Source: a virus
IMG/VR virus record: IMGVR_UViG_3300042886_000261
Coordinates: 42,751-106,750 of that record
Reading direction: 5' to 3' (one strand)
Length of the DNA stretch: 64,000 nt
The position numbers and the translations under genes are program-made. Positions within the stretch are counted from its first letter, which is position 1. Each line of letters opens with the position of its first letter. Shown in pieces: positions 3,155 to 37,900 of the stretch. The notes below the pieces were generated by a model, which saw nothing but the letters and a program-made list of their open reading frames with translations, was not told the origin of the DNA and ran no database searches.

Positions 3155-3547
3155 ATGGATAAAAATAGTTTAGAAAAAATAATGTTTGGCTTAGTCAGTC
3201 ATGGTATTAAAAAAGTTGTAGTACATTATGAAGGTGGTGGAGATAGTGGAGCAATTGAATATGTTAATGCTACTCAAGATCCATATATAGATTATGATGA
3301 ATTAGAAAATTGGGATCAAGAATACTTATTAAATGATATTGATAGTGGATTAAGTACTTTAATTGAAGATTACTGTCAAGAGATGTTATTAAATGATATA
3401 GAAGACTGGTGGAATAATGAAGGTGGCCGTGGTTATGTTCATATTGATGTAGAACTTGGTACATATACAATTAATAATAGTATCAGAATTGCTGATTGGG
3501 AAGAATATACTCATGAAGGTAGTTTAAAAGATAAAAATAAAAAATAA
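3155..3547 (+). CDS. DUF6878-like protein, paralogue 1
   Basis: GIKKVVVHYEGGGDSGAIE…IEDWWNNEGGRG; clear paralogue of the next gene; family name from recall. Confidence 0.6.
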   Translation: MDKNSLEKIMFGLVSHGIKKVVVHYEGGGDSGAIEYVNATQDPYIDYDELENWDQEYLLNDIDSGLSTLIEDYCQEMLLNDIEDWWNNEGGRGYVHIDVELGTYTINNSIRIADWEEYTHEGSLKDKNKK

Positions 3548-15265: not shown

Positions 15266-18200
15266 TTATTTTAATAGTGTAGATTTGAATGATTTAACTG
15301 CTGCTTCTGGAGTAAAGTTATATCCAGAGAAACCCATTAGTTTAAGAAAGTATGCCCAAGATTTATTATCACCTTTATTCCATACACCTTCTTTTCTTTG
15401 ATAATTTAATTTTTCAGGATCCCATGTTAGGAAAAATTGACTAACAAATTTTGTCATTCTTTCTACTGTACTAACCATAGCTGATGGAGATTTAACAGTA
15501 CGGTAAGCATCTTGAGGAGATATATATGCTGCAGTCTCAGATTGCATTCTAGATAATTCATATAGCATAAAGTTATATGCATATCCTTTTTTCTCATCAT
15601 CATCATCACCAAATGCATGCATTAATAACATTATAAAAGCAGTTGTTCCAAATATGATTACTGTTTCAGCCATTACTCTTTTAATTTGTGCTTTTTCAAA
15701 AGGAGTATATGTTGACCAGTTCTGCATCATGTTAAGTTTCATTTTAGATAAATCTTTTAACATTGTATTATAAAAAGTCATATAGTAACCTTCAGTTACA
15801 GCACCAAGTTCTTGATCTGCTTTAAGTCTTCCCCATCTTCTTTTATAACCAGGTAAAAGATGTTTTCTATACATGATAGCTAATCTACCTACTGAATATC
15901 TTTGTGCTGTACCTTTATCAAATTCATTATAAACCCCGTGTAATTTTTTACTTATTGCATGTATTCTATCTTGTAAATCAAGTTTCTTTTTATTAGTAAA
16001 ATCTGTATTTTTTTCAATTTCTTCAAGACCATATTTAGTATATGCTTCTAAAAGAGAAATTGTTTCTCCAGTATTAGTATCAGTAACTTTAGTTGCTTCC
16101 ATTAATGCAAACATTGCAGATACTTGTATCTCATGCTCACCAAAATGCTGATTAAAGAATAGTGTATCAGTTCTCATTAACTTAGCAAATACACTACCTG
16201 AAACATTTTTACCATACTGATCCTTATAGTTACCTTGTAATGCATCATAATGATTTACAAGATTACCTACTAGTGATTCAGCTGTTGGTTTACCAAAATC
16301 AGAAAGAAATGAGGTTAAGTTTTTTGCATAATACAATTTACCTTTTCTTAAATCTTTTTTGCTAAAAAATTCAGATGAGTTAGCTTCAATAATTAATTGG
16401 ATATTACCTTGTAAATTATTTGCCATACCTTTAAGTAAATCTGCAGCAATACTTGTTATAGCAGAATAACCTAATGCAAGATTTGTTAATTTACCCATAG
16501 AGTAATTCCCAAGTATCTCAGCATTTTGCATTTCATTATATAATTGCATATTTATAAATGCATCAACATGTCTTTTAGAATTTGCTTCACCTTGTTTTTT
16601 AATATTAGATTTAATTCCAAGTTTATTTGCAAGAGAATCTAATACAGCAACACCTTTAGAATTAGTTTCAGCAACTTCTCTATCTCCTATTATAGCTTTA
16701 AACATTGATGTTTCTGCTGAGATATTATTTACTGCTTCATATTTATTTGCCATTTGAGAGTAAAGTTCTACAGATCTTATTAAATCTAAACTTACTTCAT
16801 CAGCATCCATATCTTGAGTGTAGTATACAGGTATAAACTTTGCACCTTCATCAGCTAAATTTGAAAGATTAAAATCAGTTTCATCACCTCTTATAGATGT
16901 CACATCTTTAATTTTATCTTTTATAACACTTTTAATACTACTTCTTTCTATACTACGTTTATGTATTGATGGTAATATATAACCTCTTTTTTGAGCATCA
17001 GGTACCTTTTCTTGAGCATCAAGATATAGATTTAATAAAAATGAATGATATTCCCCTTTAGCATTTTTAGGTTTATCATTTTTATCATATAGTGCTTCCC
17101 ATTTTTTATTAAGATACATATCAGCTGGCTCACTAAATTCTTTCATATAAATCTTAGTACCATCTTTTTTAATCTGTAAAACAGATTTATGCCATTTATC
17201 ATAATCCTCTTGATTCCAAATACCATTATTTACTAATTTATTTTTTTCAAGCAGAATCTTATCAATTTCCTCATCACTTTTCTTTTGTGCATTTTTAGCA
17301 TACCAGTCTCTTAATATAGTAGATTTATTTGCTTCAAAATTAGAGTTTGCTATTATTTCTGCATCAGTTGGATTAGGTCCTAATTTAGTAGCACTATATA
17401 ATTTATTTTGTGCTTCATTATATTTATTAATATCATATTTTTGTACAAAAGCCATTCTTTTAGTAATTGTTGGCTCACCATTATTATTTTTACCATGAGA
17501 TATTAATTCTTCATATAATCCTTCATTAAATTTAGCTGGAGTATCTCTACTTTCTGATTGACTATCTTTATATTTTGTAAATTGCTTACCTGCAAGTTTT
17601 GCTATATCTATATCTAATTGTCTTGCTCCTTCAAATTCTGTTTTAATAGCTTTTGCAAATAACCCTAGTGAAGCATCTTCATTAGATATTAATGGGCCAA
17701 ACCAAAATTCTAAAGCACCTTCATCTCTAGATGCAAATTTTAACAATTCTTCCATTGACTCTTGAGTCTGTGTAAAAGATTGAAATTTAGCAATTCTTTC
17801 TGTTATAGCCTTAATTTTTTTATCATTAGGTTTTGCAGATGTTTTTTCAGCTTCTAATTTTTTTACTAATTCAACTAATTCTTTATTGATTGCATCATCT
17901 ATACTTAGTGATTTATAATTAAGTAAAAATGAGGCCATTAAAGGTATACCTTGTTTTATATATTGTTCTTTAACTGCTTTTCTTATTGAAATTGCATCTG
18001 TCAACATTTCTCTTATAGTCTTACCTGTTTTTTCAGAGACTTCTTCTTCTCCTTCTTTTGCAGTAAAGAAACTATATATGTCAGCTTTAGAGATTTCATC
18101 AAGAATATTATAACTATTAGCAAAAGTATTTAAATTAGTAAGTTCAACAATTCTATCTTTTTTAAACTTATCTGTACCATCATCTTTTTTATTAATGATA

Positions 18201-18583
18201 GCTTTCATTAATTTTTCAATTTCTAAAGCTTTATCATAGCTGTCTTTAACAAACATGTTAATAGAATTAATACCTTCTAGATGTCTAAATTCATCAGTTA
18301 ATTTTTTTTGTCTTTCTTCTTTTGCTGTTTGATTAATTAATTTTTGACCTTGAAGTATTTTTAATTGTTTTTCTAAATGCACCCAAATTTTATCTACCAT
18401 AGTAGATATATCATCTTTTTTTACTTCAGAAGTATCAGCTAATTCAACATCAGGTATATAATTTAAATCTTTATTTAAATCAAAACCCTGTCTAATCCAC
18501 TCTTCTTCAGCTCTAGTATCATTACCATTTGCTTCATTAAGTATTTTTATATACTCCTTACTGGTTTTAATTGGGCAATACAT
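15266..18583 (-). CDS. large virion cargo/ejection protein with C-terminal hydrophobic helix
   Basis: Last large gene of the vRNAP cluster; hydrophobic VMAETVIIFGTTAFIMLLMHAFG; only Cys is residue 3. Confidence 0.65.
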   Translation of the reverse strand: MYCPIKTSKEYIKILNEANGNDTRAEEEWIRQGFDLNKDLNYIPDVELADTSEVKKDDISTMVDKIWVHLEKQLKILQGQKLINQTAKEERQKKLTDEFRHLEGINSINMFVKDSYDKALEIEKLMKAIINKKDDGTDKFKKDRIVELTNLNTFANSYNILDEISKADIYSFFTAKEGEEEVSEKTGKTIREMLTDAISIRKAVKEQYIKQGIPLMASFLLNYKSLSIDDAINKELVELVKKLEAEKTSAKPNDKKIKAITERIAKFQSFTQTQESMEELLKFASRDEGALEFWFGPLISNEDASLGLFAKAIKTEFEGARQLDIDIAKLAGKQFTKYKDSQSESRDTPAKFNEGLYEELISHGKNNNGEPTITKRMAFVQKYDINKYNEAQNKLYSATKLGPNPTDAEIIANSNFEANKSTILRDWYAKNAQKKSDEEIDKILLEKNKLVNNGIWNQEDYDKWHKSVLQIKKDGTKIYMKEFSEPADMYLNKKWEALYDKNDKPKNAKGEYHSFLLNLYLDAQEKVPDAQKRGYILPSIHKRSIERSSIKSVIKDKIKDVTSIRGDETDFNLSNLADEGAKFIPVYYTQDMDADEVSLDLIRSVELYSQMANKYEAVNNISAETSMFKAIIGDREVAETNSKGVAVLDSLANKLGIKSNIKKQGEANSKRHVDAFINMQLYNEMQNAEILGNYSMGKLTNLALGYSAITSIAADLLKGMANNLQGNIQLIIEANSSEFFSKKDLRKGKLYYAKNLTSFLSDFGKPTAESLVGNLVNHYDALQGNYKDQYGKNVSGSVFAKLMRTDTLFFNQHFGEHEIQVSAMFALMEATKVTDTNTGETISLLEAYTKYGLEEIEKNTDFTNKKKLDLQDRIHAISKKLHGVYNEFDKGTAQRYSVGRLAIMYRKHLLPGYKRRWGRLKADQELGAVTEGYYMTFYNTMLKDLSKMKLNMMQNWSTYTPFEKAQIKRVMAETVIIFGTTAFIMLLMHAFGDDDDEKKGYAYNFMLYELSRMQSETAAYISPQDAYRTVKSPSAMVSTVERMTKFVSQFFLTWDPEKLNYQRKEGVWNKGDNKSWAYFLKLMGFSGYNFTPEAAVKSFKSTLLK

Positions 18584-18601
18584 ATTGTTTAGAATTTTTA
18601 A

Positions 18602-19387
18602 TTAACACAAATTTTTAAGTACTTTAACCATTATTTTGACTAACTGAGATTCAGTAGTAATTACTTCTAATTCATCAAATATATCATTAATGTCAATACC
18701 TTTATAAGCAAGTTGTTCTTCTGTAAATAGATTTAACATAGTATCATTTACAAAAGAATTATATGCTTTTTGATCATATGGCTTTAAAGATACTGGTTCT
18801 TTTACTAATTCCATGGTATCCAGATTAATATTTTTTAATAATATTATTTTACCTGATAGATCTGTTATATCATATGTACCAGTAATATTATTTAAAATAG
18901 CTTTTGAGCCACCAATTATAACTGATCTTGGTTTTTTACCAGTTTTTTCAAGTTCTTTTTTATACTCAGTTTGAATTGGATATTCTTCCTCAACCTCTAC
19001 AATATCTTCTACTTCTGGTATAAAGATATCTTCCTTGTTTTCTTGATCAAATAAAGCTTCATCATCATTATAAAAACTAGTATCTTTTTCATCAAAATCT
19101 TTTTCATCAAAATCTCTTTCACCAGACATTATTGCTAGTTCTTCTTCTATATCTAATTGAGCATCATATTTCTCATCAACAACACTATCAAGAACTTTTT
19201 CAGAGATATTTATTATAACTCTATCTTTATCAATAGTACTTTTACTAGCTAAATTAGAATACTTATCATTAATATCTTTTATGATTCTTTTAGCATTAAA
19301 ATCACTATGGGTAGTATTTCTATACCCACCTAATTTGTCATCAATTTCCTTATTTAAATCTTCTTTAATTTGTATTTTACAAGCCAT
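18602..19387 (-). CDS. acidic 261-aa protein of the vRNAP cluster (putative linker)
   Basis: Starts MAC, ends NLC, no other Cys; acidic centre with DFDEK repeat. Confidence 0.7.
   Translation of the reverse strand: MACKIQIKEDLNKEIDDKLGGYRNTTHSDFNAKRIIKDINDKYSNLASKSTIDKDRVIINISEKVLDSVVDEKYDAQLDIEEELAIMSGERDFDEKDFDEKDTSFYNDDEALFDQENKEDIFIPEVEDIVEVEEEYPIQTEYKKELEKTGKKPRSVIIGGSKAILNNITGTYDITDLSGKIILLKNINLDTMELVKEPVSLKPYDQKAYNSFVNDTMLNLFTEEQLAYKGIDINDIFDELEVITTESQLVKIMVKVLKNLC
19082..19115. repeat. 15-bp tandem repeat (ATCTTTTTCATCAAA)x2 encoding DFDEK-DFDEK
   Basis: Exact tandem copies at 19082-19096 and 19097-19111. Confidence 0.85.
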
Positions 19388-19397
19388 GATATTATTA

Positions 19398-22300
19398 TTA
19401 ACAAGATTTTTTATAAAGTGAAGCTGCTTCTAATATTCTTTTTTTAGTTAAAGGATCAGATACTGTTTCTTTAGCTAAGTTAGTTGTTCCTGAACCTAAT
19501 ATAGTATTATCTGAAAGTACATAGTAATTAAATTTAGTAGCTGGATCAGTAGACACTCTTAATGTACCATCTTGTAATTCTTTTCTAATATACACTTTAT
19601 TTTTAATAGTTTGCTCAGTTAATTCTTTACCATTACCAAAATATATTTTACCATCTGGTTTAATTGTAAAAGTATATTGATCTACTTTTATATTTCTTTC
19701 TTCTGGTTCAGATTTTTTAACTATAACTTCTCCAGTTTGTCCATCAGGAACTTCTTCTTGTAGTTGTTTTACTATTGGTGCAACATTAGAAACATCAGAT
19801 GCTTTATTAGTATAAACATAATCCATTTTAGATGTTCTACTTAAACCAACATATCTTAACATATTTCTTTCATTACCGTATGGTTTACCATTATAACTAA
19901 TAATTTTATTATTAGCTGGGTTATCCATATTTTCATAATCTACAAATACATTATCATATGTAGAACCTTGAGCTTTATGTGCTGTTACAGCATAACCATA
20001 ATCAATATTTTTACTAAAAAATGCTTTAATATTTAATTTTTCATATTGTGATGTACCATCTGCTTCTATTTTAAATAACTCAGGTCTTTCTTTTTTAAGA
20101 ATTGACATTGTAGTAGGCTCATTTTCAAATAATAGTACATCATCTGGGAATTGATATTTACTAAATAATGCATCTAATTCTGAACTAGCTTTAGCTCTAA
20201 ATTTCCAAGCAATAGTATTATTATTAATAGCTTTTTTTACATCTAAAAATTGCATTAATATATTTAAATTATTAGAATCACGTGGATTTATAATAAAAAC
20301 TTTTTGAGGTTTTAATAATTGAGGACTGTGTGTTTTTATTAACTCAGTATCACTTTCATTAAAAACTCTTTTAACTTCTATATTCCATCCAGAAAGTTTT
20401 CCTTTAATAATATGTGTTGTATTTAAAATACGCTCATTATATAATGAAACTTCTTTTGATTCTTGATACTCATTACTTATTACAGTATAATCTTGTCCAT
20501 TATTAATTATACTATCAGCACTTGATTGCTCATATCCCATAAGAGTTGATCCTACACCATATGATTCATCAATATTCATACTTGAAAAAATTTGTTGATT
20601 ATAAAGAGCAACAGATATATTTGAGTATGTAATTATTTTAGCATATGCTGGATCTTTTTTATACTCTTCTGAAGTAAAAGCATCAAACATTTTATTTTTA
20701 AATTCAGTTTTATCTTTTATAAAGTTAACACCTTCACCTTCACTATTTATTTCTGTATCAAAATTAAAATTTTCATTTATGTCTAACATATTATTTCTAA
20801 CACCAGTAATAATTTTTAAAACAGGGTTATCTTCTTTTTGTCTCATGATTTCTGTTAACTCATATCCTTCATTATCTTTAGTGTATGTTAATGCTGGACT
20901 TAATGAACTATTTCCTACAGGAGGTAACTGAGCAGGATCACCCATGAATATTACTGTAGTGTTTTCATCTTGTGCTAAATCATAAATATCTTTATAATCA
21001 GAATTATCAATCATAGATGACTCATCTATTATTAAAATTCCATTACTTGGTACTGCATGATTAGGGCCTGGTTGAAAAACACCATTAATTTTACGTTTAT
21101 TTAAAAGTTTAGCAGTTGTTATAGGTTTTTTAGTAACACCTCCTCTAATTAATTGTACTAATAAATTTATAGATGCTTTATGTGTAGGAGCTGCATATAC
21201 TATTTCTTTCATACCTCTATGTTTAGTATTTACATAAAGTTGAATAAATTTAGCTATTGTACTTTTACCAGTACCCGCATAACCTTTTAAAACAAATTTT
21301 GTATTTTTATTATTAATGGCATCAATTGCTAATTGTAAAGCTGTTTTTTGTTGATCATTTAATCTTATAATTCCTGTTTTAATTTCAACACCATCACTGA
21401 ATGTAAAAGTATTATTAAATGATACTGGTTCTCTTTTTTTAATTACAGTTTCTATTTTAACTACTGGAGCTTCACTTACTGTAACATTTTGTTGTTGAGT
21501 AGTAGCTTTAAATGTATTAGTATATACATCTCTAATAGCTTGTTTTGCAGCAGCTTCTACTTCAGGTCCTTTATACTGAGCTCTAGGTACCCATTTACCA
21601 TCTTTTTGTACATTGTAATTTTCTATATCTCTAGAACCTACACCAGCAAAGTTTTTAGTAAGTGCTGGTGTGCTTATTTCTTTCCAACCATTATAATCCC
21701 ACTCTTGTTTAGTTTTATCATAACCTTTATCAAGGTATTCTTTATCTTGAGTGTACCATTTTTGGGTATCTAAATCAAATACATATACTGGTTTACCCAT
21801 TTTTATACCTAACTGGACAGCAGTATTTGTTCCACCCATAACTTCAGGTTTTGTAGTAGGTTTTATTTCAGCAACAGCAAATACAGCATCTGCATTAGCT
21901 ACTTGATAATAATTTCTTACTTGTAAATTTCCTTGTAAAGTATCTGGGTAGCTTTCTCCAAGTAATCTCTCTACTTCAGTACGGGCTTTATCCATTTGTT
22001 CTTTAGTAAGAACTGTAGCTTTAACACCTGCATTTCTAAGTTTTTGAGATAAATTTGGATTACCTGCATCTTTATAATGTCTTTGATCAGTAACACCAAA
22101 CTCTCTACCTATTGTATCCCAGTATGTATCTCCACCATATGCTCCACCAGAATGATTAGTGTATTCTGATGCAGCAACACTAGTAGATGGTTGAGTAGTA
22201 GGTATATTATATTCATTAATGTCAGCATACCATTTACCAACTTTATAGTTTGCATAATTTACAGTATCAAATTGTTCATATAGTTTAATACCATCTCTGT

Positions 22301-25300
22301 TGTACTCATTGTACTGCTTTCTTTTTTTAACAAAGTTGCCTTTATTTGTAGGCTCCGAAAACTCAATATAAATACCATGATTACCAACCATTAATCTACT
22401 TATTGTAGGTTCAAGTTGTTTAAGCACATCTTTATTTTCTACAGTTAATGTTGAATTATCTGAACCTAATGTTATTTTTCCTAGTTGTGGGTAATCAGTG
22501 TTTAATTTTTGAATATAAACATTTCTAATTTGTTTATTAATTTCTTCTATTTCAGAAACACTTTTTGTTTTTTCAAGATCTCTTATAAATTGTTGATAAT
22601 AACCCGTTTCTACATATTTCCTAAATTTATTATACCATTCTGTATCAACACTAGTAGATGGTTGATCAGTAGCTTTAAATATAATTGAATCATCAATGTA
22701 ATTATTTACATTAGGGTCATTAGCAATCATCATAGCTGCAATTTTATCAAAAGTAGATGTATTCATCTTATTAGAAATAAATTCTCTAGATGCTGGTTCT
22801 ACTATTTCAAAATATGTAGTATCAGGAAGAACATAACTAAGACCATATTTAGTATTACCTACTCCATTCTGTAAAATAGATATAAGTGGTAATATTTTAA
22901 ACATGTCTGATATTTTTTTATTCTTAACTGGATCTTTTACTTTAATAACATTTTCATCAGCAAGATCAATTAAGTTTTGATGATAACTATCAGCTAGTGC
23001 TCCTTTTACTACAGGTTTATTATTTAATGTTAATACAGATATCTGACCTTTAATTGTAAGTTTTTTAGTTTTAGCATCAAATACCTGATCTTTAATTGAG
23101 AAATTTTTAGAATTATATATATTTACCGGTACATCAGTAATTTGTTCTAGTACTGAATACAATTCTTTTAAGTGACTGTTTTCACTTATCATACTCATGA
23201 ACCTAGTTACATATGCTTGGTGATTTAAAGTACTAAATAATTCTGGTACACCTGGGAATGGTTCTTTAGTAGTTATTATCTCATTTAATCTGTTTTGATA
23301 AATATAATTTACCATTGCTTGTTTAAATGATGTGATAAAATTAGTTATACCATCTGCTCCTTCACCAAATTTAAGTGGAATATTATTATTTTTAATATAA
23401 TTAAGTAAATAAGTAGATACTCTTTTATCATCTGTTAAAGGAAATATAGGTTCTACTAAATCTTGAGTAATAACATTATCAAAGAAAGATCCTAATATAG
23501 ACTCTTTTCTTAATTTTCTTACTAGGTCTTGATCTATTTTAGATGACTCAGATAAAATATCTAAACCAATTTTTCTTTGCATGATCTCCTGTATGGTTTT
23601 AGAAGTAGCTGTATCAGGATTTGACTGTCTTTTAAGATCAGCCATATCTTTTATTTGTTTTTCATACTCTAAATAATGTAAAAATATTGCAATAGCTTTT
23701 GGACTTGTAGTATCATTAGTAGTCATTGTACCTTTTAAATCCGCTGTTGTAAATTTATCCATACCTTCAGTTGCTGCAAGTACAACATCTTTATAATTTG
23801 GAGTAGACATTGGGTGATAATATTCATTAGTAGGATCAGCAATTATACTTTTAAATAATGGGCCAGTTTCAGAACTGTTAATTAATTCAATATCATTTAT
23901 ATTAACTTTATCAGCTTTTACATCTGCAATTAAGCTTTTTAATGTTGTATCATATGATTTATCAATACCAGATAGTTTTACTGATACCTTAGCTTCTTTA
24001 TTATAACCTTTTATTGCATTATTTAATCTTGTTCTATTTGCTTTATAAATACTTTCTGAGATATTAGTTTGTTTTAATACATTTAGAAGTGCATTATATT
24101 TTTTATTTTCATCAGATAATGTTTCTTTACCAGTAAGATTTGCATATGTACTAGCATATAGTCTTTGTTGATTTGCATATTCTCTTACTAGTGGTTGAGA
24201 TATAAAATAAACGGCATCTCTTTTTGGTACACCAGCTTTAAGTAAATTCAATAACATTGGTATAAGTTCTTTATTAGCTTGAATAAAGAAGATCCATGCA
24301 TCTTTCTCAACATCTACAGAACCATTCATTAAGTGTGAAAATAAATCTGCTATTTTATCTTGGCCATCTGCACTATTAATACCTGATAAAGAAATTCTTC
24401 CATCTTCAGTTTTATTATGATCAAGTAATAATCTCATTTCATAGATTATACTTTTATCATCTTCATATTTTTTAGTCTTTGGATTTTTAACTGAGCCATA
24501 ATATGTTTTTGGTAGAGCAGCACCTAATGCTGTATACAATGGATGTAATGCATTTTCAAGAGCAATAATACCTAATACATCTTTCCCTGTCATATTAGCT
24601 TCATGCTTATGTAAGTTATAACCTACTTCAAATACATTTGTTGGACTAATAGTTTTATATCTTCCATATTCAGGTGAAGACTTTACTAAGTCATCTGCAA
24701 TATCTTTCATTAAGTAAGTTTCATTTGGTCTTACTAATGTAGCATAATTATCAGGTAGTTGTAATATACCTCTGATAGAATCAATTAATCTATTTTCAAT
24801 TGCTTTTTTCTGTAATGCAATTAATTTAACTACTTGAGCTTTATCACCTTTAGATTCTGCATTTGCAATTAATTTTTTTAATGTTTCCTCAGATATATTA
24901 GATGTTACATAATTACCATTTTCATCTATATTAGGCATGAATGTAGTAAGCTTATCAACATCATAATCTGCTCCTGATTTAGCAACAATTTCTGATGGAG
25001 GAATAATAATAGAACCTGCAGCAGGATTTAAAAATTCATATACTTCCATAAATTCCATAGAGTTCATTCCTTGTACAGGGATCCTTACAGCTGATAAAGT
25101 AACAGATTTACGGTTATTATCTTTATTTAACCACTCATCATCTTTAATTAATTCATTTAATCTTTTTCTTGTACCTATTTCTATACCATCAAGATCTTTA
25201 AGTTTTAAAAGATTTTTAAAATCTCCTTGTAATGCAATAGCAACTTTCATTGCAGATGTATTACCATTCTCACCTGGATTATAGAAAGGTAAGTTATTAG

Positions 25301-28300
25301 TACCTAAGTATTTTTCTATTTCTGCAACTTGAGCTTTCTCAAATTTAAAACCTGAATCCCATAATCCATTAGTCATTGAACTAGCAACTTGTACTAATGC
25401 TTCACCTTTTACTTTTTGTTTTACTATTCTTTTCTCAACAAGTGATGTTATCATTTTTTCAATATCTCCTGAGAGCATGTGTAATGATAAATCTTTTGTT
25501 AAAACATTATTAGAACCAACTTGAATATAGTCAATTAAATGTTCTGGTAAATCCTTTCTAGTAAGTTCTCTTTGAACTACATCCATGAATTTAGTTAAAT
25601 CACCACTAACATATTTACCATCTTTATATTCATAACCAATTTCATTTAATAATTCAATTTTTAATATTTCAGTATTAGCATTTACAGCATCTTCATAAGC
25701 TTTAATAAATGGTGCATTGTCATCATTTACAATTTTACCATTTTTATATAAACCTTCAAGAATAAGTTTTCTTAACTGAGTAGCAAATATTGTTTTACCT
25801 TTTAATTTAATTGGAACAGCTGTAACATTTTTAAGATATGCTAAGTATATTGTATTTGGGGTAAACTTAATATCTGACTTTAATGTTTTTTGAGCACCGT
25901 TATCATCATATATTTGATCTGCTACTGCTTTACCATCTTTATCTAATTGAGATGTTATACTACCTACTTTAGAACCAGTTTGGAATGTAGCATACTGTAT
26001 ATTACTTTTCATCATTTGATGATGTAATGACTCTAAATCAGAACCAACAATAAGTGATGGAATTAATGGCATTAATGCAAATTTATGCATTGCATTAACT
26101 GGTAATGGTGTATTAGCTAAATGACCAAAATGTTGTAATTTATATACAGGAAAAATTTGTGTTATATCTTCAGTATTAACTTCTTTACCACTAATTACTT
26201 TTTGGAATAAATCTTCTTGTTCAGATGACCAGTTCTTTTCAGCAAGTCTTAATAGACGGTATGCATCAATAGTTATATAACCTTGACCATCACCTTCTTC
26301 CATTTCTTTATATGGTTTTAATTCTTTCTTTAATCTATAATCAATTTCTGATTGAGATAATCCTCTGTTTTTATAATCTTCCCTTAAACCTTTTTCAATA
26401 TTTTTAATATATACTGAACTTCTTTTAACTTCCTGCATGATAGCAGTGTTATAAGTTTTACTGTAATTAAATGGAGCATACTCACTACCAAATTCATCCA
26501 TAGTTGCTAGCTTAGCACCATATGATGTATTTTTAATTGTGTAACTATTTAAAAAGTCTTGAGTATAAATATCATCCATGAATCCTCTACCACCTGAAGT
26601 AGAACCTGGATTTCTTTTATGTAACTCTTGTTTAGCATGATTATACTGTACAATATCACCATATATTAAACTAGCAGTCTCAAAATTATGAATCCATGCA
26701 TTCATTGTATGTGCTTTAATAAGCATTGTTTCTTCAGCATCAGTTGATAATTCAAACTTTTTTAAACTATTTGTTAATGCTGGGTCAATCCATTTAGATT
26801 TCTGAAAATCTTTCTTGTTATCAGCAGACTGTCTTTCAAAATATGCACTTACTTGCTCAGTTATATCTTTTTTTAATTTAGGATCTGATTCTAAATAATC
26901 AAGTAATTTACCATTTTTTACTTTCTCAATTATTTCTTCTTTAGTATCTTTAGTTAATATATTATCAAATGCAGTAAAGAATTCACCAGCTATTCCAATA
27001 ACAGTTTCACCATCAGCAGATTTAATTTCTCTATTATAACCTACATATTTTTTATACTCTTCTTTATTAGTTCTTATTTTTTGTATTCTAATTAACTCAG
27101 CTTGAATATAACCTAAGAATATATTATCAACAGCATATTGATCAGCATCTCCTCCTGGTTTAAATTTATCTATATCAACATATAAATTTTTTAAATTAGT
27201 AGACTTCATACCAAATGATGATGATTTAGAAGCATGTCTCATAAATTCTTGAAAACCTGATTTTAACATCATGTTTAATTCTTGAATATATTTACTATGA
27301 ACATCAAGAGATGTAGTATTAGCACCATCAACATTAACTATTTGAGTACCAGATACCATTACAAGATCTAACTTAGCATCTCCTTTTCTTGCCCATGTAT
27401 TTTCTTCAACTTTAAATATAGTTTTAAGTAATTGTGATTGCTCAGTAAAACCGTTTATCAATGGATTAAGATAACTCATATAGCTATATGTTGGATCCAT
27501 CCATAAATCTCTACCATTTTTAACATTATTAATGGCATCAACTTGCATAGTAACAGTACTATCTTCTGTAAATTCATTTACAAGTTTTTTCTCTGCATTT
27601 AGTACACTAAAACTTGCATAATTATTACCAAATTTACTTTGTAATCTTGCTAAATTTTGTATTACAGATTTTTCACTTGTGGTTTTTTTATATATACCTG
27701 CAGGCATTTTACCATATAATGCATCAATAGGATTATCTATGAATTTTTTAATAAATGCTTTTTGCTCATCATTAGTAAGTTTTGGATCTTTATTTAATGT
27801 ATGAACTGATTTTGCAATTTCATATAAATAAAAAACACCATAATCTTTAGCACCTAATTCATCCTTAATACTCTTTAAATCTTGTAAACCAACACCTAAT
27901 GCATTAACAAATTCAATTTGTTGTGCAGGTAAATCAACAGATGCAGCAGTAGGAAAAGCTTTAATTAATTCATCAAGTTTTAATGTTGACTTATTATTTT
28001 CAGCTTTACTAATATATTTAGTTTCTGCAGATGAATTAAAAGCACTTTTAAAACTATTTATAACATTTTTAAATTCAATTGAAGCATCAGTTACTTCAGA
28101 TTTATAATCACCTGTTTCTTCATCTTTATCAACTGTTAATTGAACATATCTTATTAAAGGTTTTTTAAAATCTTGCCAAAATGCTGCTTTGATATTAAAT
28201 TCTTGTAATGTTTTAATATTTGTAGGATCTGGAAATTTTTTATTTACTAATTGTCCTAATTCTGGATAGAAAGGTACAGCAGCTTGAAGCTTAAGATACA

Positions 28301-31300
28301 TTTCAACTGGATTCTTTTCACCTCCAATTACTTTAGTAACTGTATTCCATATTTTACTAAAGTCAACTAATTCTGGAAAACCTAATGGTCCTTCTACTTC
28401 TTTACCATCAACTATTTTAAATAGACTTTTTAAAATATAAAGAGTCTCTTTTTCAGCTAATTGCATTAATGATTTTTTACCTACTTCTTTATTTGAAAAT
28501 ATTTCTGTTTCTTGAGCTTCTTCAGAAGCAGTTGTATCTCCTTCTATTTCAGTTTCTTCTTCATCTATTTCAATATACTTTTGCTTAATTAAATCAAATG
28601 TACTATGTTCTTTATGAAACTCTAATATATTATCCCAATTAGCAATTGCTGTTTCTAGTATTCTTATTTTATTATTTAATAAACTTCTTTTATTAAAATC
28701 TTCTTGAGCAGTAGCTTCTAGTTCTGTTTTAAATTTAACAAGTTTTTCATTAAATCTTCTTTTAGTTCTAGCATAAGCTTCTATTTTATTTTTTTCAATT
28801 GTTAATATTTGAATAGTTCCAGTTTTATTTACTGTTACTAGATTTCCTGCTGAATCTTTAACATTATTAATGCTTTGAGCAAGTCTACCATCATATGTTT
28901 CATCAATAATTTTTGATAATACAGAATCAATTTGATTAGATACTTTAAGACTATCTTGATAATTTAAAACAAGTTCTTTTGTTTCAGTATTAAATACACC
29001 TCTTGCTCTATTAAGCTTGTTAAACATATGGTTATCAACAAGTGGAGTATACTTGTTTAAAAGCTTAGGGTTTTTACTTGCAAAAAATAATTTTTCAAAT
29101 AAATTTTCTTGAATAGATCTTTTACCAAATAATGCTTTAATAAAATTCCATATTCTTCTGAATATAGTATTTCTTATAGGAGCATCACCTACAGCTTTAG
29201 GATCTTTAGCATACTCTCTAAAATCTTCAGCAATAATTTCTTCTACTTCTTCTGGAGAAAGTTCATAATTATTTAATCTTTTTCTAGTTTCAGCATATAA
29301 CTTAGTCTTTTGTTTTTTAGTTAAGTATAATTGAGAAAATGCATGCCAAGCTTCATGGTATAAATCTACAGCAGAACTACCAGTAGCTGTATCTAATTGT
29401 ATTGAAACATCTGATAATCTTTTACCTGCTATAATAAATCTTGCATAAACATCAGAGTTAACAATGTTAGCCATGTGTTCAAGCTTAATAAGTTTAGATA
29501 AAGGAGAATTATCCCACCACTCTTTAGCAGCAGTAATTTCTTCTTGAGTAACATTATTAGGTAACTTAGAAGATCTATCTAATTCAAATGGTATATCACT
29601 TTCTTCATCAGGTTGATCAACTTTATCTGGATTAATAATTACTTCATCTTTTTTAGCTGCTTCTTGTTGTGGAGTACCAGGTGCTTTAGTAACTTTTGGT
29701 TTTAAAGTAAAATCCTTTTCACTTACTTGACCTATTTTTTTATCTCCTTTGTATATTGAAACTACATTATTTTTTGGCTCACCTTTGTTTGTAATTATAT
29801 CATTAACTATAAAAGTTACAGGATCATTTGAATTTATGTCATTTGATGATATACCTGGTTCATATCTACCTTCCACTGTTACACCATCTACTTTCATTAA
29901 AAATGTAGCATTTGTTTTAGACATACCACTTAATATAGTACCAGATAAATCTTTATTAACTTTTAATTTAAGAACAAGATCATCTTTAGCTGCTTTAATT
30001 TTATCTACAGTAGAAGATTTTACTTCTTCTTTAACTTTTTCTGTTTCAGCAATAAAATCTTTATCTATTCTAAATTGAAAGTATGGATTATTTACTGCAT
30101 CACCTTTGTTAGTTTTTTTATCAGCAGGATTTAAAATTTTTAAGTCTAATGATAAAAGAAAGTCCTTATAATCTACAGCATTAAATTTACCAGTATTACG
30201 GTTATAATTATAAAATGTTTTACTACCAGCAAGTATTTCTTTATTATAACCCATAGTAGTTGCATATGTCAAAGTTTTTGCATTAATCCCTTGATTTTCA
30301 TATGTAACTGTGCTTTCATTTAATAAATTATCAATTATAATTTGTTCAACTTTTGGATCTGTAAAATCTTTTATTGGTATTAATAATTGTTTATTTTTTA
30401 TTGGATCTGGTCTATATCCTCCAGTAAGTGTACCAGTAACATCATTATAATTTACAAATAGTTTTCTTGTTGATTGAGCATTAATAGTATTATGAGTAAA
30501 TTGTAAATAAAAATCATTTTTCTGTTTATTATTTAATTTAGGATTTACTAATACAGCAGCAATTTGATTTATATATTCTTCAGGTAAATTAGTTCTATCA
30601 ATTGTATAATTAACATCATTTATAAGTATTTCAGCAGTAAATGTTCTTGGATTAATTTTAATATTTAATTTATTTTCTGGTGTTTTAGTTGCAGTAAGTA
30701 ATTTTTTTAAAGTTGGATTTTCTTTATTAAAGAAAATATCAACAATACCAGCACTTATATCTGTTATATTTAATAACTTAGGTTCACCACCACGTACTTC
30801 ATCTCTTAAGTCTTGTAATTCTTTAAAACTACTTTGTTGTTTATTATCAACTAACTCAAGAAAGTCTTCATATGTTGTACCCTGATCAATTAACCATTTC
30901 TTATATGACTCCATACTCATTTCTTTTTTATGAGCATCTTTTTCAATTAATTCTGCAGGTGAAATAATTCTATCTTCTAGACCATATATATCTGTAACTC
31001 TTAATTTATCAGAATTTTTTTCAGATCTTACATCTCTTAAAAATTGATATACAGGTTTACCACCATCTTCTTTAGATACTATAGAACCTTCTTCATCAAA
31101 ATGTAATGTATTTCCATCCACATCTGATAAAACTAATACAACAATATCTTTAGCTTGAGTAACATTTGGATCTTCTATTTTATCTTTTACCATACTATTA
31201 CTTCTAATAATATGTGCAACAGTAGTTGCATCTAATGTCTCTTCACCATTAAGACTTAATAACATTTTAGGTCTAAGTTTAATAACTTTACCTTGATAAA

Positions 31301-31914
31301 TTAATTCAGGTCCACCTTCTTTTCTTACACCTTTTTCTTTAATGGTTCTTATTGTTCTGTATATTCTTTCTTTATTAGGATCTTTTTTTTCTTTAGCTCC
31401 AGTATCTTTTTCATTAGGTGTTCTAGGAGAAAATTCTTGCATTGTAGAAGTTAAAGCATCATCTGCTTGCCATCTAAATGGATCATTAAGCATATTAAGA
31501 AAGTCATTACCTTGATCTGATAAAGGAGTATTTAATATACCTTTTTCTATCTCCATTCTAAATTCTAAATCTTCTAGAGTAGCTTCAGGTCTAAAATGTT
31601 TTAATGTCTCAAGTAAACCATTTTCTGTATTTCTGAATTTAGTAATTAATTCTTTATTAGCATTTAAATCAAAATCAAAATCACTTGTATCTATTTCATC
31701 TTGCTCAACTGCATTCTTCATTAAAGTAGGTACAATTTGTAAAAAAGTAGATGCAGTATTAACATCTGTTTTTTTTTTGTATTTCTTCAAATAGATCAGT
31801 CATAAATTCTTCTGGAGCAAAAGCTTCATTAGACTCTAAAGAATTAAGCATTTGTTTATATATTAACTTATATAAATTTTCAACTTGTGTTTGTGATAAT
31901 GAACAGTTTACCAT
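19398..31914 (-). CDS. giant virion RNA polymerase (crAss gp66-like two-barrel RNAP) fused to zincin-like metallopeptidase, SLOG and Dda/RecD-like SF1 helicase domains; interrupted by a 1-nt frameshift near the 5' end
   Basis: RIPVQG and catalytic-type GADYDVDK (DYDVD at 24954-24968), DGQGY; HEAWH…EEIIAEDF (29343-29357); HSGGAYGGD…RNYYQV…GGTNTAV…KPVYVFD; GYAGTGKS, APTHKA, IIDESSM, GDPAQLPPV, TAHKAQGSTY. The ORF track starts at TTG 31790, but an ATG at 31914 (4 nt after the upstream stop) joins the frame if the A10 run is A9 (~4171 aa). Confidence 0.8.
21494..22680. repeat. junction repeats in the vRNAP gene: exact 20-bp CAACACTAGTAGATGGTTGA at 22175-22194 and 22646-22665; related 20-mers at 21494-21513 and 22661-22680 (18/20)
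   Basis: Read directly; encode QPSTSV x2 and FKAT(D/T)Q x2; the exact pair is 471 bp (157 codons) apart. Confidence 0.85.
31769..31778 (-). repeat. A10 homopolymer at the vRNAP frameshift
   Basis: T10 on the + strand; A9 would fuse MVNC…EEIQKK to TDVNTAS…. Confidence 0.85.
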
Positions 31915-31918
31915 AATA

Positions 31919-34900
31919 TTAACAATCTAAATCATTTAATAATTCTTTATAAATTTCTGCTAATGTTTTATCATTAACATTTGCTTTTGCTTTATCTATA
32001 TTTTTAGTATTAGAAGTAAAATCTTTTAATACTTTTAATGACTCAGCAATTAAGTCTTTATCTTGTGTATCTAAACCTTTATTAGCTTTTTGAGCTTCTT
32101 TGGCTTTTTCAATTGCTAGTGTTGAAATGTGTTTATCTAACTCAAACAAAGATAATGTTTTTTCTTTATTATTATATGTAAATTCTACACCATTTTTATC
32201 AGATTTTACAACAGTAATTTCAGCACCTGTATCAGCAAAAACATCATCTTTAGTTTTACCAGGTACAGTATCAATAACAACTACTACATCACCTTCATTA
32301 AGTAATGTTTTAGATATAACAGTATTTGCTTGTTTAAATTCTTCTTTTTTAGCTTTTACTAATTCACCAATTATTTTACTATCTTCTAGAGTTATCTGTT
32401 TAGTAACTTTAACTGCATTTCTTAAATCAACAAGATAGTTTTCAAGTACATTTGCTTCTTTAATAGAATTAAGTTTATCTGTTACTTCAGCAATTGTAAT
32501 TCTTGGTTTTACAGTATCAGCTGTTTCAGCAAGTGTTTCTGAAGCAGTTAGTTTTGCAAAAATACTAGATACACCATTAAATGTTTTTTCAATTTCTGAT
32601 TTAAGTGTTGGGTTAGTTTTTATTAATGATGAACTGGCTCCATCAAGATAATCTTGATAACCTGATACATCAATATTACCTAATTTACTTTGCCAATCTG
32701 TTAGTATTACTGCAATTGCAGCATAATTCATAAAATCATAGATACCACTATTTTCTTCATAAGAAACATCTAGATTTAAGCCACCAAGAGGAAGTAATGA
32801 TAATAATTGTTGATTATTACCTTCTACTTTTGCAATTGGTTTATCATATTTATAATTTTTATTTAAACTATCAAGTATTTGTTTAATAATAGGATTATTA
32901 TAACCATCTTTATAAGTATCAGCTCCAGCTTTTACAAGCCAGTCTCCACCATTAAAAAAGAATGGATACCACTCACCTTTTGTTTTACTACTAGTTCCTT
33001 TTGAACTTCTATATATAGGTACTATTGCACCATCAATATTAAATACTATTGCATCTCTACCAGCAGACTGTTTAAAAAATGCACTGTTATTAATTTTTTC
33101 TACATGACCTTGTTCAGCAAGTGTTTCTAAAATTTTTGGTAACTCTACTCCTAATTCAAGTTGTGATGTTATTATATCAGCTACTCTTGCTCTTTTTTCT
33201 TTATCTGTAGTATCTATATCAACTTTAGTATCTGTAGTACTAACTTTTTTATCAACAACAGGAGTTGTTTCTTTTTCAGTAACTCCTTTTCTTAAAGCTG
33301 CATACTCATCAGCAAATGCAAGTGCATTTAATGAAGCTCCTAGTTCATCTTGGTATTCTGTATAGTTAAGATTTTCATCAACTATTTTAGCTAAGTCTTC
33401 TTTACTTAATATTTTAATTATATCTTCAGGATATTCTAGTTCTACTAATTTTTCAACTAATTTAGGATTCATTGCTGTAGCAACTTTTATACCTGGTGCT
33501 TTTGTTTCAATTTTAATTTTAGCATCTATCTTAGATTTAGCTTTAGCAAAACTAGGATTATTGATATCAAGTGGGAAGTACCAATTATCAAGACCTAATA
33601 ATTCTGAATTAGTAGGTTCTTTTACAGATATTATCTGATATTTTTGTTCATTAATAACTGTTTCAAGAGGCATGATGTTTATTTCAGCATCAAGTCCTGT
33701 CATCTTTTTTAATAATCTAGCATATATATATTGTTGTAAAGTATAATCTTCAGTTTTATTTAAACCTGATTTTGTTTTATCAACAAAGCCATTCCATTTT
33801 GTTTGTTTACCTGTTTTAAAATCTATTATATGTAATTTACCAGTTTGATCAATAAGTAGTAAATCCATTTCACCAGCAACATCACCTTGTTCATCAAATA
33901 CTACAAGACCTTTTGCTAATGTATATAATTCACCTGAATCTATTTTTTGTTTAATAGGTTTTAAGAAACCAGTAGGTCCAAACATACTATCATATGCCTC
34001 TCTAGTAATTTCTGATTCTTTAAATTCTGTTTTTTCCTTAGAGAAAAAATTTCTTAATTGCTCATCTATATAATCACCAGCTTTTCTTGTATACTCATAT
34101 GCATTTTCAGATATATGATTTTGTATAGCTTCTAATAAATCTTTTTTAGTTTTAATATTACTAGTTTCTGGATTAGCAAGTATTTCATTTAAATAGTTTC
34201 TTAAATTATCTGAACTAGATGCAACACCATCAAGAGTATCTTTTGTATATCCTGAATTTTCTAATGCTAATAATTTTTTATCAATATTAGTCATGAAAGC
34301 ATCAATGCTCTCTTTAGTTAACTTAGTTGCACCAATAGTATCATTGAATACTTCACCTATAGTGCTTTTGCCATTATATATATAGGCTTCAGATTTTAAT
34401 TCTTGTATATAATTAGTTACTCTTTTTAATAAATCACCTTTTTTATCTTTTAGTAAATAACCACTTTGACCTATTTTTCTTATATTTTTTTGTTGAGCAG
34501 ATAATTTTTCTTCTATAATTCTTATTGTCTCTTGAATACCTGGCTTAAAACTTTTTATTAAACGTGTAGCTATTAATTTTTCAAAATCATTAATTACTTT
34601 TGAATAATAAGCTTTTTTAACAGGGTCCTCTTCATTATCTCTAAAGTTCTTAAACTGAGTACTTAAAGTTTTTATTTGCTCATTATCAAATTTAGAAGTG
34701 TTATTTGTTTTGTTATTATACTCAAAATCAAATTCTTCTATTTTACCAGATTTTTGTTTTTCTACTTCTGCTACATTTTTATCATTATACTTATCTATAA
34801 TGGTTTTAGCTTTAGGATCTTTTTCAATAAATGCTTTAAACATATCTGATATCTCTTCATCAGATACTTCATCTTCAACTGCAGATGCTAGTGCTTCAGA

Positions 34901-37900
34901 TTTATTAAATTCATTCTGTAATTGACTATATAAGTCTTTAGGGAAATCTTTTAACTCAGTGTATATTGAGTATTGTTTTAATTCATTTTTATCTTTTTCA
35001 GCATCAAAAGTATCTATTGCTTCTTTCTTAAGTGCAGTATATTTTTTATTAAGTTCTTGAACATCTTCTTTACTTGGTTTAAGTTCAATTTTATATACTG
35101 TATATTCAGAAAATGTATTTTTAGTATCTTCAACTTTTATTATATTACCGTCTTTATTATTATTTCTTAAACCTTCAGGAGAACTATATAATGTTACAAC
35201 TTTATCTGTTTTTGAAACTGTTACTTCTACATAGTCACCAACAGTTAATGCATCAATAATTTCTTTAATTTTTATATTATCTTTTTTAACTGTTTCACCT
35301 TTAGTTTTTACTTCAGTTTTTGGTAATAAATTAAATTCTTTATCATATGCAATTTTTAACTCATCAAGTTTTACTTGTAATTTTTCATCAAAATTTTCTT
35401 TTGAGGGAGCATTATTTTTTAATTCTTTATTTTGCTGTAACCTATCAAATATTATAGCATATTCAGCACTACCTGGTTTTATTACTTGCTTAGTAGTCTC
35501 ATTAAGAAATTCTTTAGGTGGAATATTATTTTCCATATAATCTTGGAATGCATCAAGATCCATGAATATGTTTTTATCAGCTAATGCATTTAAAAATGCA
35601 TTATTTTCTAATCCATTAATTTGCTTATTAACCATATCTACAAAATAGTCTTTTCTATTATTGTACATATTGCTCATCCAAATTTGAGATTTTTTAAGTT
35701 GATCCATAAAAGATTGTGGATCATGTAATAAATTAATTTGATTTACAAGTATTTTTTGCTCATCACTTAACGTGTAATGATCTTTAAGCATACTAAAAGT
35801 TTTATCAATATCAGTATCAAATATATAAGTTGAATCAATACCATTTGTATTTTTTAAATAATTTTTATATGCTATTTCTAATTCATTATTTATTGCATTT
35901 TTTTGAATCTCAAGTATTTGTTCTTTATCTTCATCTGTTAATTCATCAACACCTTGTTGTTGTTTTACTGCTTCAAATAATTCATTAGAAACTTTAGCTT
36001 TTCCTTCTGCATTATTATATAAAGCATGCATACTATAAGCAGATGAAAAATCTTCTAATGCTTTTACTCTATTTTGTTTTTTTAATATTTCTGTTTTAGC
36101 TTTAGGATCAGTTGACTGACTAAATGCTTCTATTTCTGATTTAACTAATTGTATTTCATCATTTATTCTTGAAGGTTCAAGTACCATAAGCATGTCTGCT
36201 TGAGACATTTTTTTCATAGATGGGTTATTCAGAATCTTACCAGAAATGCTTGTCATTCTTTTAGCATTATCCATAAAACTATGATTTGCAAAAACATAAT
36301 TTTTTATCCCCATCTGCCAAGCTTCACTTAGTATTGCAGCATCTTTATATTCAGGTAAATCTTTATCATATTTACTTAAATCAATTGGATTAGGAAACCT
36401 ATCATTTGCATAGTTATATGACTTTTTTACTTCATCTATGTTAGATAAAATATTATCAATCTTATCTTGTTGCTTAGTTCCTGTACCTTTTTCAAATCCA
36501 AATGCTTCCTCAAATTCATCTACTGATAAATCTTTCATAGATCCAATATGATCTTTAAAATATTCAATTGTATTAGTATCTAAAGCAGTATATATTTGAG
36601 TAACAAATGCATTACTTAATTCATCTTTTGCATCTTTAGTATCTGCTTCATCTACATTAGATACTGTATTATTTTGAACACCATAGTTAAATAATCTAGA
36701 ATTAAAAAATTCTTTAGGATCATTGTATAAATCATTTAGTCTTTTTGATACAGTCTCACCATGTGTTTTTCTTAATTTTTTATATTCAGTAAATTTTTCT
36801 TTATTAAATATATGATTATAACCTGCATCTAAACCTCCTTTAGCTAAGTTTAACCCACCAGAAAATACACCCATTAATGCACCTGATGCAAATGTTTCAA
36901 ATCCTTGTGATGAAAATTGATCTTTTAATCCATCAAACATTAATGAACTTTGTGCTTTATTATATAAGTGAGCTCCTAATTCTTTATTTTTATATGTAGT
37001 TTCATAATACTTTTCATTAGCTACTGTAATAACATCTTGTAAATTTTCTTGAACACCTTCCATTAAGTTGGCTTTTGTATATTTACCAAGTGTTTTAATA
37101 GTAGTTTTTACTGGAGCAGCTTTAAAACCTTTAAGTGAATTTTTAAATGAATCAGCAACAAATGTAAATTCACCTTTAACTAATTTTTTACCAGTTACAG
37201 CAGTTTTTTCTAAAACAATTTTACCACCTTTCATGGATAATACATCATCTATTTTAGAATTAATTACTCTTTTACCAATGCCTGATTTCATAAAATTAGG
37301 AAGGACAACTTTATTTGTTCCCAATATTAATGCAGTATTCCACATTAATGTATTCATTCCAGATTCTTTTGCTTTTTTAGTTAATATATATTGTTCATCA
37401 TCATTTGGTGCTCTACCATTTTTTTCATAAAATGCATTATAAAGATCATCATATACTTTATTATCATTCATACCACCTTCTAGACGGGCTTCTGATAATG
37501 ACATATTAATATTCCTCATGTCTCTAAATAAACCACCAGCTGTTCTACTTGTACTTTGTGACAATCTTGCAAAACCTGTTAAGTTATCTGCATTTTTACC
37601 AATGCCTGCAAATGCATCAAATGTATTTTCAATTGGATTTAAAAATTTACCTAATTTACTTGCATTAATATTTTCTGCTGCTTTCCACATATTTCTAGCA
37701 CCAGTAATAGTATTTGCTTCATTAATTGTTTTATTTATAGCATTATAACCTTTTGCAGCCATTTCAGTTACATCACCAATTTTACCAATTTTTCTAGCAT
37801 TATTAGCAGTAGCAGCAAAGAAAGAACCTCCTCCTGTAAGAGGAGCAAGTAAAGCACCAGCAGCTTCTTCAAGAATTGCTGAACCAAGGATACCTGCTGT

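Follow-up and report, generated by a model that had tools for sequence, protein, structure and literature searches.

Why should successive domains of one giant phage protein be joined by the same short piece of DNA, conserved even at synonymous positions? The question is raised by a 12.4-kb gene in the window analysed here, a 64-kb stretch of DNA (bases 42751-106750 of the 106.7-kb IMG/VR virus record IMGVR_UViG_3300042886_000261; genome 90% complete, G+C 26-33%). The gene is a single open reading frame (ORF) of 4130 codons on the minus strand (19398-31790), and by its sequence it encodes a crAss-type virion RNA polymerase (vRNAP) that is also a 'polyvalent' protein, carrying further domains behind the polymerase core. 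An earlier note, made from the letters of the window alone, had proposed that short repeats in this tail bound a recombination-driven array of plug-in domains. Having compared the gene with relatives in viral and metagenomic collections, we consider it likely, at a probability of about 70%, that domain cassettes are shuffled in frame by recombination at a conserved junction of this polyvalent virion protein.

The window contains two exact copies of the 20-mer CAACACTAGTAGATGGTTGA, at 22175-22194 and 22646-22665 of the plus strand, spaced by 471 bp, or 157 codons. Shuffled sequences gave about 0.02 chance matches with up to three mismatches allowed, and no further copy was found in the whole 106.7-kb genome. 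A third site, at 21494-21513, matches 22661-22680 at 18 of 20 positions (0 expected), and its first 12 bases are those of 22190-22201. The earlier note had described both the exact repeat bracketing an in-frame unit of 157 codons and this third related site; coordinates, spacing, frame and the shared 12-mer were all reproduced. It is evident that the three sites, all held by the giant ORF, coincide exactly with the first three domain borders after the core, in the order core, 150-amino-acid (aa) cassette, DprA-like SLOG domain, Dda-like SF1B helicase and conserved C-terminal domain.

The core (22680-31790, aa 1-3037) is ended by linker J1 (F-K-A-T-D-Q-P-S-T-S-V, 22647-22679, containing the repeat copy at 22646-22665), which reads ..FKAT-D-QPSTSV and then DTEW.. 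on the coding strand. Behind it lies cassette A (22197-22646, aa 3049-3198), a discrete domain of 150 aa with the motif RLMVGNHGxYxEF. Linker J2 (T-Q-P-S-T-S-V, encoded by ACT CAA CCA TCT ACT AGT GTT; 22176-22196, overlapping the copy at 22175-22194) reads ..IPT-T-QPSTSV and then AASEYTNHSGG.., and it opens the SLOG module (21513-22175, aa 3206-3426). Linker J3 (F-K-A-T-T-Q-Q-Q-N-V-T-V, a TQQQ allele; 21477-21512, containing the third site) reads ..FKAT-T-QQQNVTV and then SEAPVV.., and sits on the border between the SLOG module and the helicase module (19794-21476, aa 3439-3999), just where the earlier note had seen the SLOG domain close. The C-terminal domain with the stop codon (19398-19793, aa 4000-4130) completes the gene. 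The motif TQ[PQ][SQ] is absent from every other ORF of this genome. Tandem duplication was considered as the source of the repeats and rejected; the tail shows no internal self-similarity at the protein level, and the repeats are therefore not remnants of such an event.

Breakpoints in relatives and recurrence of the linker

To see where related genes part from this one, six vRNAP genes (L005, L006, L007, L008, L009 and L012) were taken from protein-guided scans of IMG/VR and compared by BLASTP. In L007 and L008 the core is 82-84% identical up to aa 3046, where an unrelated module of 117 aa follows before the C-terminal domain returns at 70%. L009 is 94.5% identical up to aa 3050, then carries a foreign insert of 1354 aa with 2-oxoglutarate (2OG)-Fe(II) oxygenase and NADAR domains, and resumes at 89% from aa 3437 to the end. 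L012 keeps the core at 67% up to aa 3050 and has five other modules, split by STQPS/STQQQ linkers, before its C-terminal domain. L005, with a core of 54% identity up to aa 3052, is without cassette A, and its similarity resumes with the SLOG domain at aa 3197, now at 77%. Similarly, the SLOG domain of L006 is 81% identical where its core is only 24% identical, so that in both genes the identities of core and module are discordant. The breakpoints at aa 3046-3052, 3197 and 3437-3441 are the three repeat sites. Thus, domains are present, absent or replaced among close relatives with breakpoints at the repeat, as the earlier note had suggested looking for, and the fixed domain order without such breakpoints that would have spoken against its proposal is the opposite of what the six relatives show.

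The same picture was obtained with DNA. In windows of 90 nucleotides (nt), identity to L009 is 0.91-1.00 as far as J1 (about 97%), falls to 0.5-0.6 past J1 and to about 0.4 before J3, and returns to 0.92-1.00 after J3. Cassette A and the SLOG module therefore fill a slot that holds the 1354-aa array in L009, with about 97% identity on both sides. Moreover, L009 and L012 have in common a module of 141 aa, about 97% identical in DNA and flanked by a linker on each side, while their cores on the left are about 75% identical and the sequences to the right of the right-hand linker are unrelated. Judged by these identities, this module is the clearest single case of a cassette exchanged between two linkers. 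The C-terminal domain is 50-77% identical in L007, L008, L009 and L012 despite their differing internal arrays. The final 130 residues are kept in all close relatives whatever precedes them, and the protein ends in ..KKSC; this domain may serve in anchoring, packaging or ejection.

The linker is not limited to these genes. The 18-mer CAA CCA TCT ACT AGT GTT was found at 57 sites in 44 IMG/VR contigs, and each copy is read in frame as QPSTSV within a long ORF. Extended by the ACT codon before it, the resulting 21-mer was found at 78 sites in 67 metagenome contigs, in frame at 78 of 78 and in 70 distinct contexts; freshwater-type JGI and marine/TARA assemblies are among the sources of these contigs. 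Neither orientation nor frame varies among the more than 135 linker sites, and a single ORF may contain the linker up to four times. The vRNAP core is recognisable in 30 of 46 linker-bearing ORFs, at 21-67% identity to that of the window. From the origin of these contigs, the linker appears to be confined to an aquatic clade of freshwater and marine metagenomes.

The neighbours of the linker are highly varied. When 130 residues on each side of 60 junctions were clustered, 27 upstream and 27 downstream families were obtained, joined in many combinations. The end of the core precedes seven different families and the end of the SLOG module precedes three, and the 'KEGVSELFESNPEL' kinase-like module has five different upstream families. 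The search for TQPSTSV-flanked domains in metagenomes proposed in the earlier note thus yielded over 100 junctions of this kind, with widely varying neighbours. The spacing from linker to linker has a median of 160 aa and is mostly 130-200 aa (157 aa for the unit in the window), which indicates one domain per cassette. Two ORFs (L021 and L034; IMG/VR 3300031758_000049 and 3300031857_000053) have four exact linkers, 447-480 bp apart, on the N-terminal side of the vRNAP core, and the cassette array is therefore not limited to the C-terminal tail.

Conservation of the linker as DNA

The earlier note had pointed to identity at synonymous positions as a sign that the repeat is maintained at the DNA level. 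Given the codon usage in 140,000 codons of the linker-bearing ORFs, the probability that QPSTSV is written in these six codons is 0.0085. A codon-degenerate pattern scan, in which the serine codon families were held fixed, returned 113 sites, of which 50 were the exact 18-mer and the remainder were mostly chance matches that lie in short ORFs of G+C-rich contigs; within crAss-like giant ORFs only six sites had one or two synonymous changes, against the 50 exact ones. A logo was made from 49 non-redundant junctions. Outside the search seed, the two codons before the linker have T as their last base in 94% and 98% of these junctions, although the residue at -2 varies (T in 18, P in 13 and S in 10 of 50). 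Synonymous third positions are 94-100% conserved, and conservation around the block has sharp edges on both sides, dropping to background directly upstream. Between divergent pairs, residues that are identical in the flanking modules use the same codon in only 57-68% of cases.

The variants of the linker are informative in the same respect. We collected 65 junction contexts with one to four mismatches to the 21-mer, from contigs that had been picked only by an exact copy elsewhere. They contain 125 nucleotide differences, 115 in residue-changing codons and 10 synonymous, and 11 of 12 single-mismatch variant types are nonsynonymous; random single changes would give about 27% synonymous ones, as calculated from the genetic code. 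The peptide variants include TQSSTSV, AQPSTSV, TQPSTNV and IQPSTSV. In addition, the TQQQ allele is invariably written ACT CAA CAA CAA (7 contexts). Purifying selection on the peptide predicts the reverse of the 115:10 ratio, and the linker is therefore kept, or repeatedly homogenised, as DNA. Codon bias alone was rejected as an explanation of this identity in nucleotides, on the grounds of codon usage, flank codons and near-match variants. The earlier view that maintenance acts at the DNA level is supported by the unseeded codon positions and by the deficit of synonymous variation.

Polymerase core and modules of the tail

Around the motif DYDVD, aa 1775-2675 match g066 of Cellulophaga phage phi14:2, annotated as 'catalytic RNA polymerase subunit' (tblastn, E=3e-20), and the same region has dozens of homologues in crAss-like and Flavobacterium phages, many of them putative RNA polymerases. 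DYDVD itself (aa 2275-2279) is the metal-binding DxDxD motif. The core was not recognised in searches with PHROGs, Pfam and phmmer against PDB. The g066 protein is an experimentally characterised virion RNA polymerase of the crAss type, which enters with the DNA and transcribes early genes (PMC7886860). By homology to this protein, phi14:2 gp66, the vRNAP of the window would also be injected as infection begins.

Cassette A is a real and portable domain of an uncharacterised family. It is matched end to end by 46 cluster representatives in a library of 1.8 billion proteins, and these homologues include both stand-alone proteins of 160-170 aa and giant proteins in which the domain lies at positions between about 1300 and 3800. 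In an independent protein (P0003), cassette A is likewise placed after the core behind the same linker type, at 84% identity where the core is 52% identical; elsewhere it keeps 60-68% identity beside a core of about 25-30%. It is missing from L005, L007, L009 and L012. An AlphaFold2 (AF2) model with 20 homologues reached a predicted local distance difference test (pLDDT) score of 95 and shows three helices followed by a beta sheet, whereas the model from the single sequence was poor (pLDDT 51). Conserved residues are H90, Y93, E95, Y112, K121, Y123, Q125 and N130. The cassette had no significant match in Pfam, and its model had no Foldseek match in PDB at E<=0.001 and no usable match in the ESM Atlas. 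The highest Z in a wide VIA-align search with the model was 4.6, for Yippee/cereblon-like beta domains, a value in the range of noise.

The other modules are of more familiar types. The SLOG module matches PHROG 768 'DprA-like' (E=9e-11, aa 3206-3355) and has a nucleotide-binding loop of the GGxxGxD type in the form HSGGAYGGD; its match to Pfam cpYpsA is marginal (E=0.048). The helicase module, of Dda/RecD-like SF1B type, matches Pfam AAA_30 (E=2e-25), AAA_19, PIF1 and UvrD_C_2, PHROG 325 (E=1.5e-70) and, in PDB, Dda 3upu (E=1.6e-11). Linker-flanked modules of other phages include NADAR, 2OG-FeII_Oxy_2 (AlkB-like), an AAA_33/Zeta_toxin-like P-loop kinase, cpYpsA SLOG and DUF7831, and many have no Pfam match at all. 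Homologues of the DprA-like SLOG domain were found in the N4-like Klebsiella phage Pylas (L002, NC_049444), fused to a T7-like vRNAP, and in a 5801-aa giant protein of the gut crAss phage cr130_1 (L001, NC_055901), whose ORF, when read with table 11, contains 75 in-frame stops, indicating stop-codon recoding. Thus the same effector domain is seen in unrelated virion polymerases. The linker is absent from cr130_1 and Pylas, though the SLOG domain is present in their giant proteins.

The 5' end and the surroundings of the gene should also be described. The first 48 residues of the L007 ORF align at 79% to a frame starting from ATG 31914, and the alignment with the start of the L007 ORF changes frame at a run of ten A (A10, 31769-31778). 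From this alignment, the vRNAP ORF probably extends further at its 5' end, and the frame change may reflect either programmed slippage or a sequencing error in the homopolymer. Adjacent large ORFs on the minus strand (15266-19387 and 31919-38578) encode proteins of 261, 1105 and 2219 aa, none of which matched a PHROG at E<=1e-5. Weak similarity to the protein of 2219 aa was seen in a linker-bearing ORF of 4183 aa (L023), and a second protein of the gene block may therefore have the linker too. TCG (1 copy) and CGA (5 copies) are the rarest trinucleotides of the window, while other trinucleotides with CpG are far commoner (ACG 61, CGT 48, CGG 39 and CCG 38); these counts suggest that a TCGA-like target, or another one with TCG/CGA in it, is avoided; a host restriction site would be an example. 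The sole CGA of the 12.4-kb gene, at 22356, lies inside cassette A. Its rarity and location are as the earlier note had them, and the recent import read from it there is a weak hint.

Proposed recombination at the linker, its alternatives and known systems

The proposed mechanism is as follows. Single-domain modules are arrayed between the conserved core and the conserved C-terminal domain, with a linker of the T-Q-P-S-T-S-V type at their borders. The linker DNA is a block of about 23 nt, nCT ACT CAA CCA TCT ACT AGT GTT, with TQSSTSV and TQQQ alleles and a fixed codon phase. Since this phase-locked block is common to unrelated modules and distant phages, recombination within it would always give an in-frame chimera. 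Co-infecting related genomes would be the partners through which a module is gained or replaced, and two copies within one genome would give a deletion instead. Where a second crossover is required, ordinary homology for it would be offered by the conserved core at one end and by the C-terminal domain with the downstream genes at the other. DprA-like and YpsA-like SLOG domains, AlkB-like 2OG oxygenase, NADAR, P-loop kinase, helicase, DUF7831 and many modules without assignment, cassette A among them, would all be moved as cassettes in this way. We infer recombination as the mechanism, be it homologous, by short homology or by template switching, and such recombination would also homogenise the linker. 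The modules may act as early effectors of repair or counter-defence. The plug-in array of the earlier note is in its main claim supported by the breakpoints in relatives, the mosaics and the linker contexts.

Several facts weigh against this interpretation. For recombination of the RecA type, a block of about 20 nt is short, and RecA, RecT, ERF, YqaJ, integrase, resolvase and HNH had no Pfam match in the 90%-complete genome, so that the enzymes would be host-encoded or too divergent to recognise, or template switching would be used. Not every border has a linker: it is missing at the boundary preceding the C-terminal domain in the window and on the N-terminal side of the SLOG domain in L006. 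Viral and metagenome collections, with the record of this genome excluded, contained neither a precise 471-bp deletion variant nor a second contig with the 26-mer of J2 plus the SLOG start. Moreover, the junction contexts are not independent events, since alleles are inherited (TQSSTSV is one allele in 16 contexts), and the linker could also have a role at the peptide level.

If this last role were the main one, the linker would either be cut, by a head protease or by a zincin-like peptidase within the protein itself, or act as a flexible spacer of Thr, Ser, Pro and Gln, and recombination would be incidental. Such a composition is typical of interdomain linkers, the linker always lies exactly between folded modules, and the core has a zincin-like HEAWH motif at aa 812; autoproteolysis by MPTase was also proposed for N4-vRNAP-like polyvalent proteins (Iyer et al., 2017; PMC5512222). 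However, the Pfam scan of the ORF gave no peptidase family at E<=0.01. A constraint on the peptide predicts mostly synonymous variation, against the 115 to 10 found, and third positions are nearly invariant while several peptide variants are tolerated. It also leaves unexplained the nucleotide identity between phages with no more than 21-30% identity in their cores. We therefore regard a mainly peptide-level linker as improbable; a peptide-level role is compatible with the data and may exist beside recombination at the linker, though alone it cannot explain the conservation of synonymous sites.

The block of about 23 nt might also be the recognition site of a dedicated recombinase or of a nicking or homing endonuclease, as an in-frame analogue of attC or sfx sites. 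Its sharp edges with background conservation on both sides, its constant orientation and frame, and the palindrome ACTAGT within it would fit such a site. The sharp edges are, however, equally expected if the block is the only sequence common to unrelated modules. Several linker alleles coexist, the window has no inverted copies, and neither orphan cassettes nor copies outside the ORF were found. Tyrosine (PF00589) and serine (PF00239) recombinases and HNH had no match, with positive controls for PF00589 and PF00239, though a divergent enzyme is possible; this is mildly against a dedicated site-specific system, which we consider quite improbable. Hardly any weight is given to an artefact or chance, that is, to coincidental low-complexity repeats or to chimeric metagenome assemblies joined at a common 20-mer. 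It is true that early rounds of assemblers use k=21 and that J2 of the window has no independent copy in the collections. Nevertheless, the chance expectation is 0.02, every site is in frame in a long ORF, identical multi-linker architectures occur in independent samples (L021/L034, L043/L047, L016/L049, L032/L035 and L089/L112), and the independent P0003 has cassette A after the core behind the same linker type. Assembly chimerism is thus unlikely. A bolder form of the favoured reading, recombination between in-frame cassettes, would make the block a selected recombination junction, an in-frame 'domain integron' through which the aquatic crAss-like clade would take effector domains from a common pool into its first-injected protein, possibly with the help of a specific enzyme and possibly with the block doubling as a cut site that separates the modules after injection; we find it doubtful.

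Polyvalent proteins have been described in phages and conjugative elements, including N4-like vRNAPs with fused effector domains (Iyer et al., 2017; PMC5512222), and this concept makes the biology of a variable multidomain virion protein plausible. Like them, the protein of the window is a giant virion protein that joins an RNA polymerase to unrelated enzymatic and nucleic-acid-binding domains in an architecture that varies among relatives; at least two unrelated effector domains and a variable architecture are found in this gene and its relatives. SLOG, helicase, NADAR, AlkB-like and kinase domains fit the conflict and repair repertoire of polyvalent proteins. A zincin-like metallopeptidase domain is frequent among polyvalent proteins without being obligatory, and here a zincin-like motif is seen without a Pfam peptidase family. 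Unlike N4-like vRNAPs, the polymerase would by its sequence be of the crAss type, with two double-psi beta-barrels in one chain, and not T7-like. Moreover, Iyer et al. (2017; PMC5512222) describe architectures, and the word 'linker' is absent from the main text of their paper, whereas here a single nucleotide-conserved in-frame junction marks the breakpoints of exchange. Large multidomain proteins of the 'transcription block' are characteristic of crAss-like phages (Yutin et al., 2021; PMC7886860). With phi14:2 gp66 the window protein has in common the homologous core and its DxDxD motif, and gp66, a protein of about 2200 aa, is not known to have such a module array.

Other systems of exchange are similar in part. 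In polymorphic toxins, a conserved motif (VENN in CdiA, PxxxxDPxGL in Rhs) borders a replaceable C-terminal domain and gives homology for cassette swap. The present linker resembles it as a short conserved coding motif at the border of variable domains. However, in this phage virion protein several internal modules are separated by the motif and the C-terminal part is conserved, and the 106.7-kb genome has no immunity genes and no linker copies or orphan cassettes outside the ORF. The 'His boxes' of T-even tail fibres and the boundary sequences of lambdoid phages are short conserved crossover points at which segments are swapped between related phages, and they are alike in that short conserved sequences in or between phage genes serve as crossover points. 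They differ in that here one sequence of 21-23 nt occurs up to four times per ORF in phages with 21-30% identical cores, and that enzymatic effector domains of a vRNAP are swapped rather than receptor-binding segments. Integrons (attC/IntI) and shufflons (sfx/Rci) are unlike the present case, where no recombinase match was found in the genome and all copies are direct, with none on the other strand.

In the literature, TQPSTSV or QPSTSV was found in no phage paper (two matches were to unrelated animal viruses), and only general descriptions were found of domain fusion or recombination in crAss vRNAPs, with no account of a linker or linker-bounded exchange. What is new is a polyvalent vRNAP of the crAss type in which the modules of the variable array are set apart by a single in-frame junction, conserved in its nucleotides and common to a broad aquatic clade. 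Variable multidomain virion proteins were known, whereas the way in which their domains are reshuffled with the frame preserved was not, and here apparent natural recombinants are visible at the joints. The 21-mer may be used as a sequence tag to retrieve from metagenomes hundreds of candidate early-acting phage effector domains, many, like cassette A, of unknown fold. Those who build chimeric multi-domain cargo proteins in phages of Bacteroidota may also find in the linker a natural design rule. Finally, with this polymerase, second-order selection for evolvability in phages would gain a model that can be tested.

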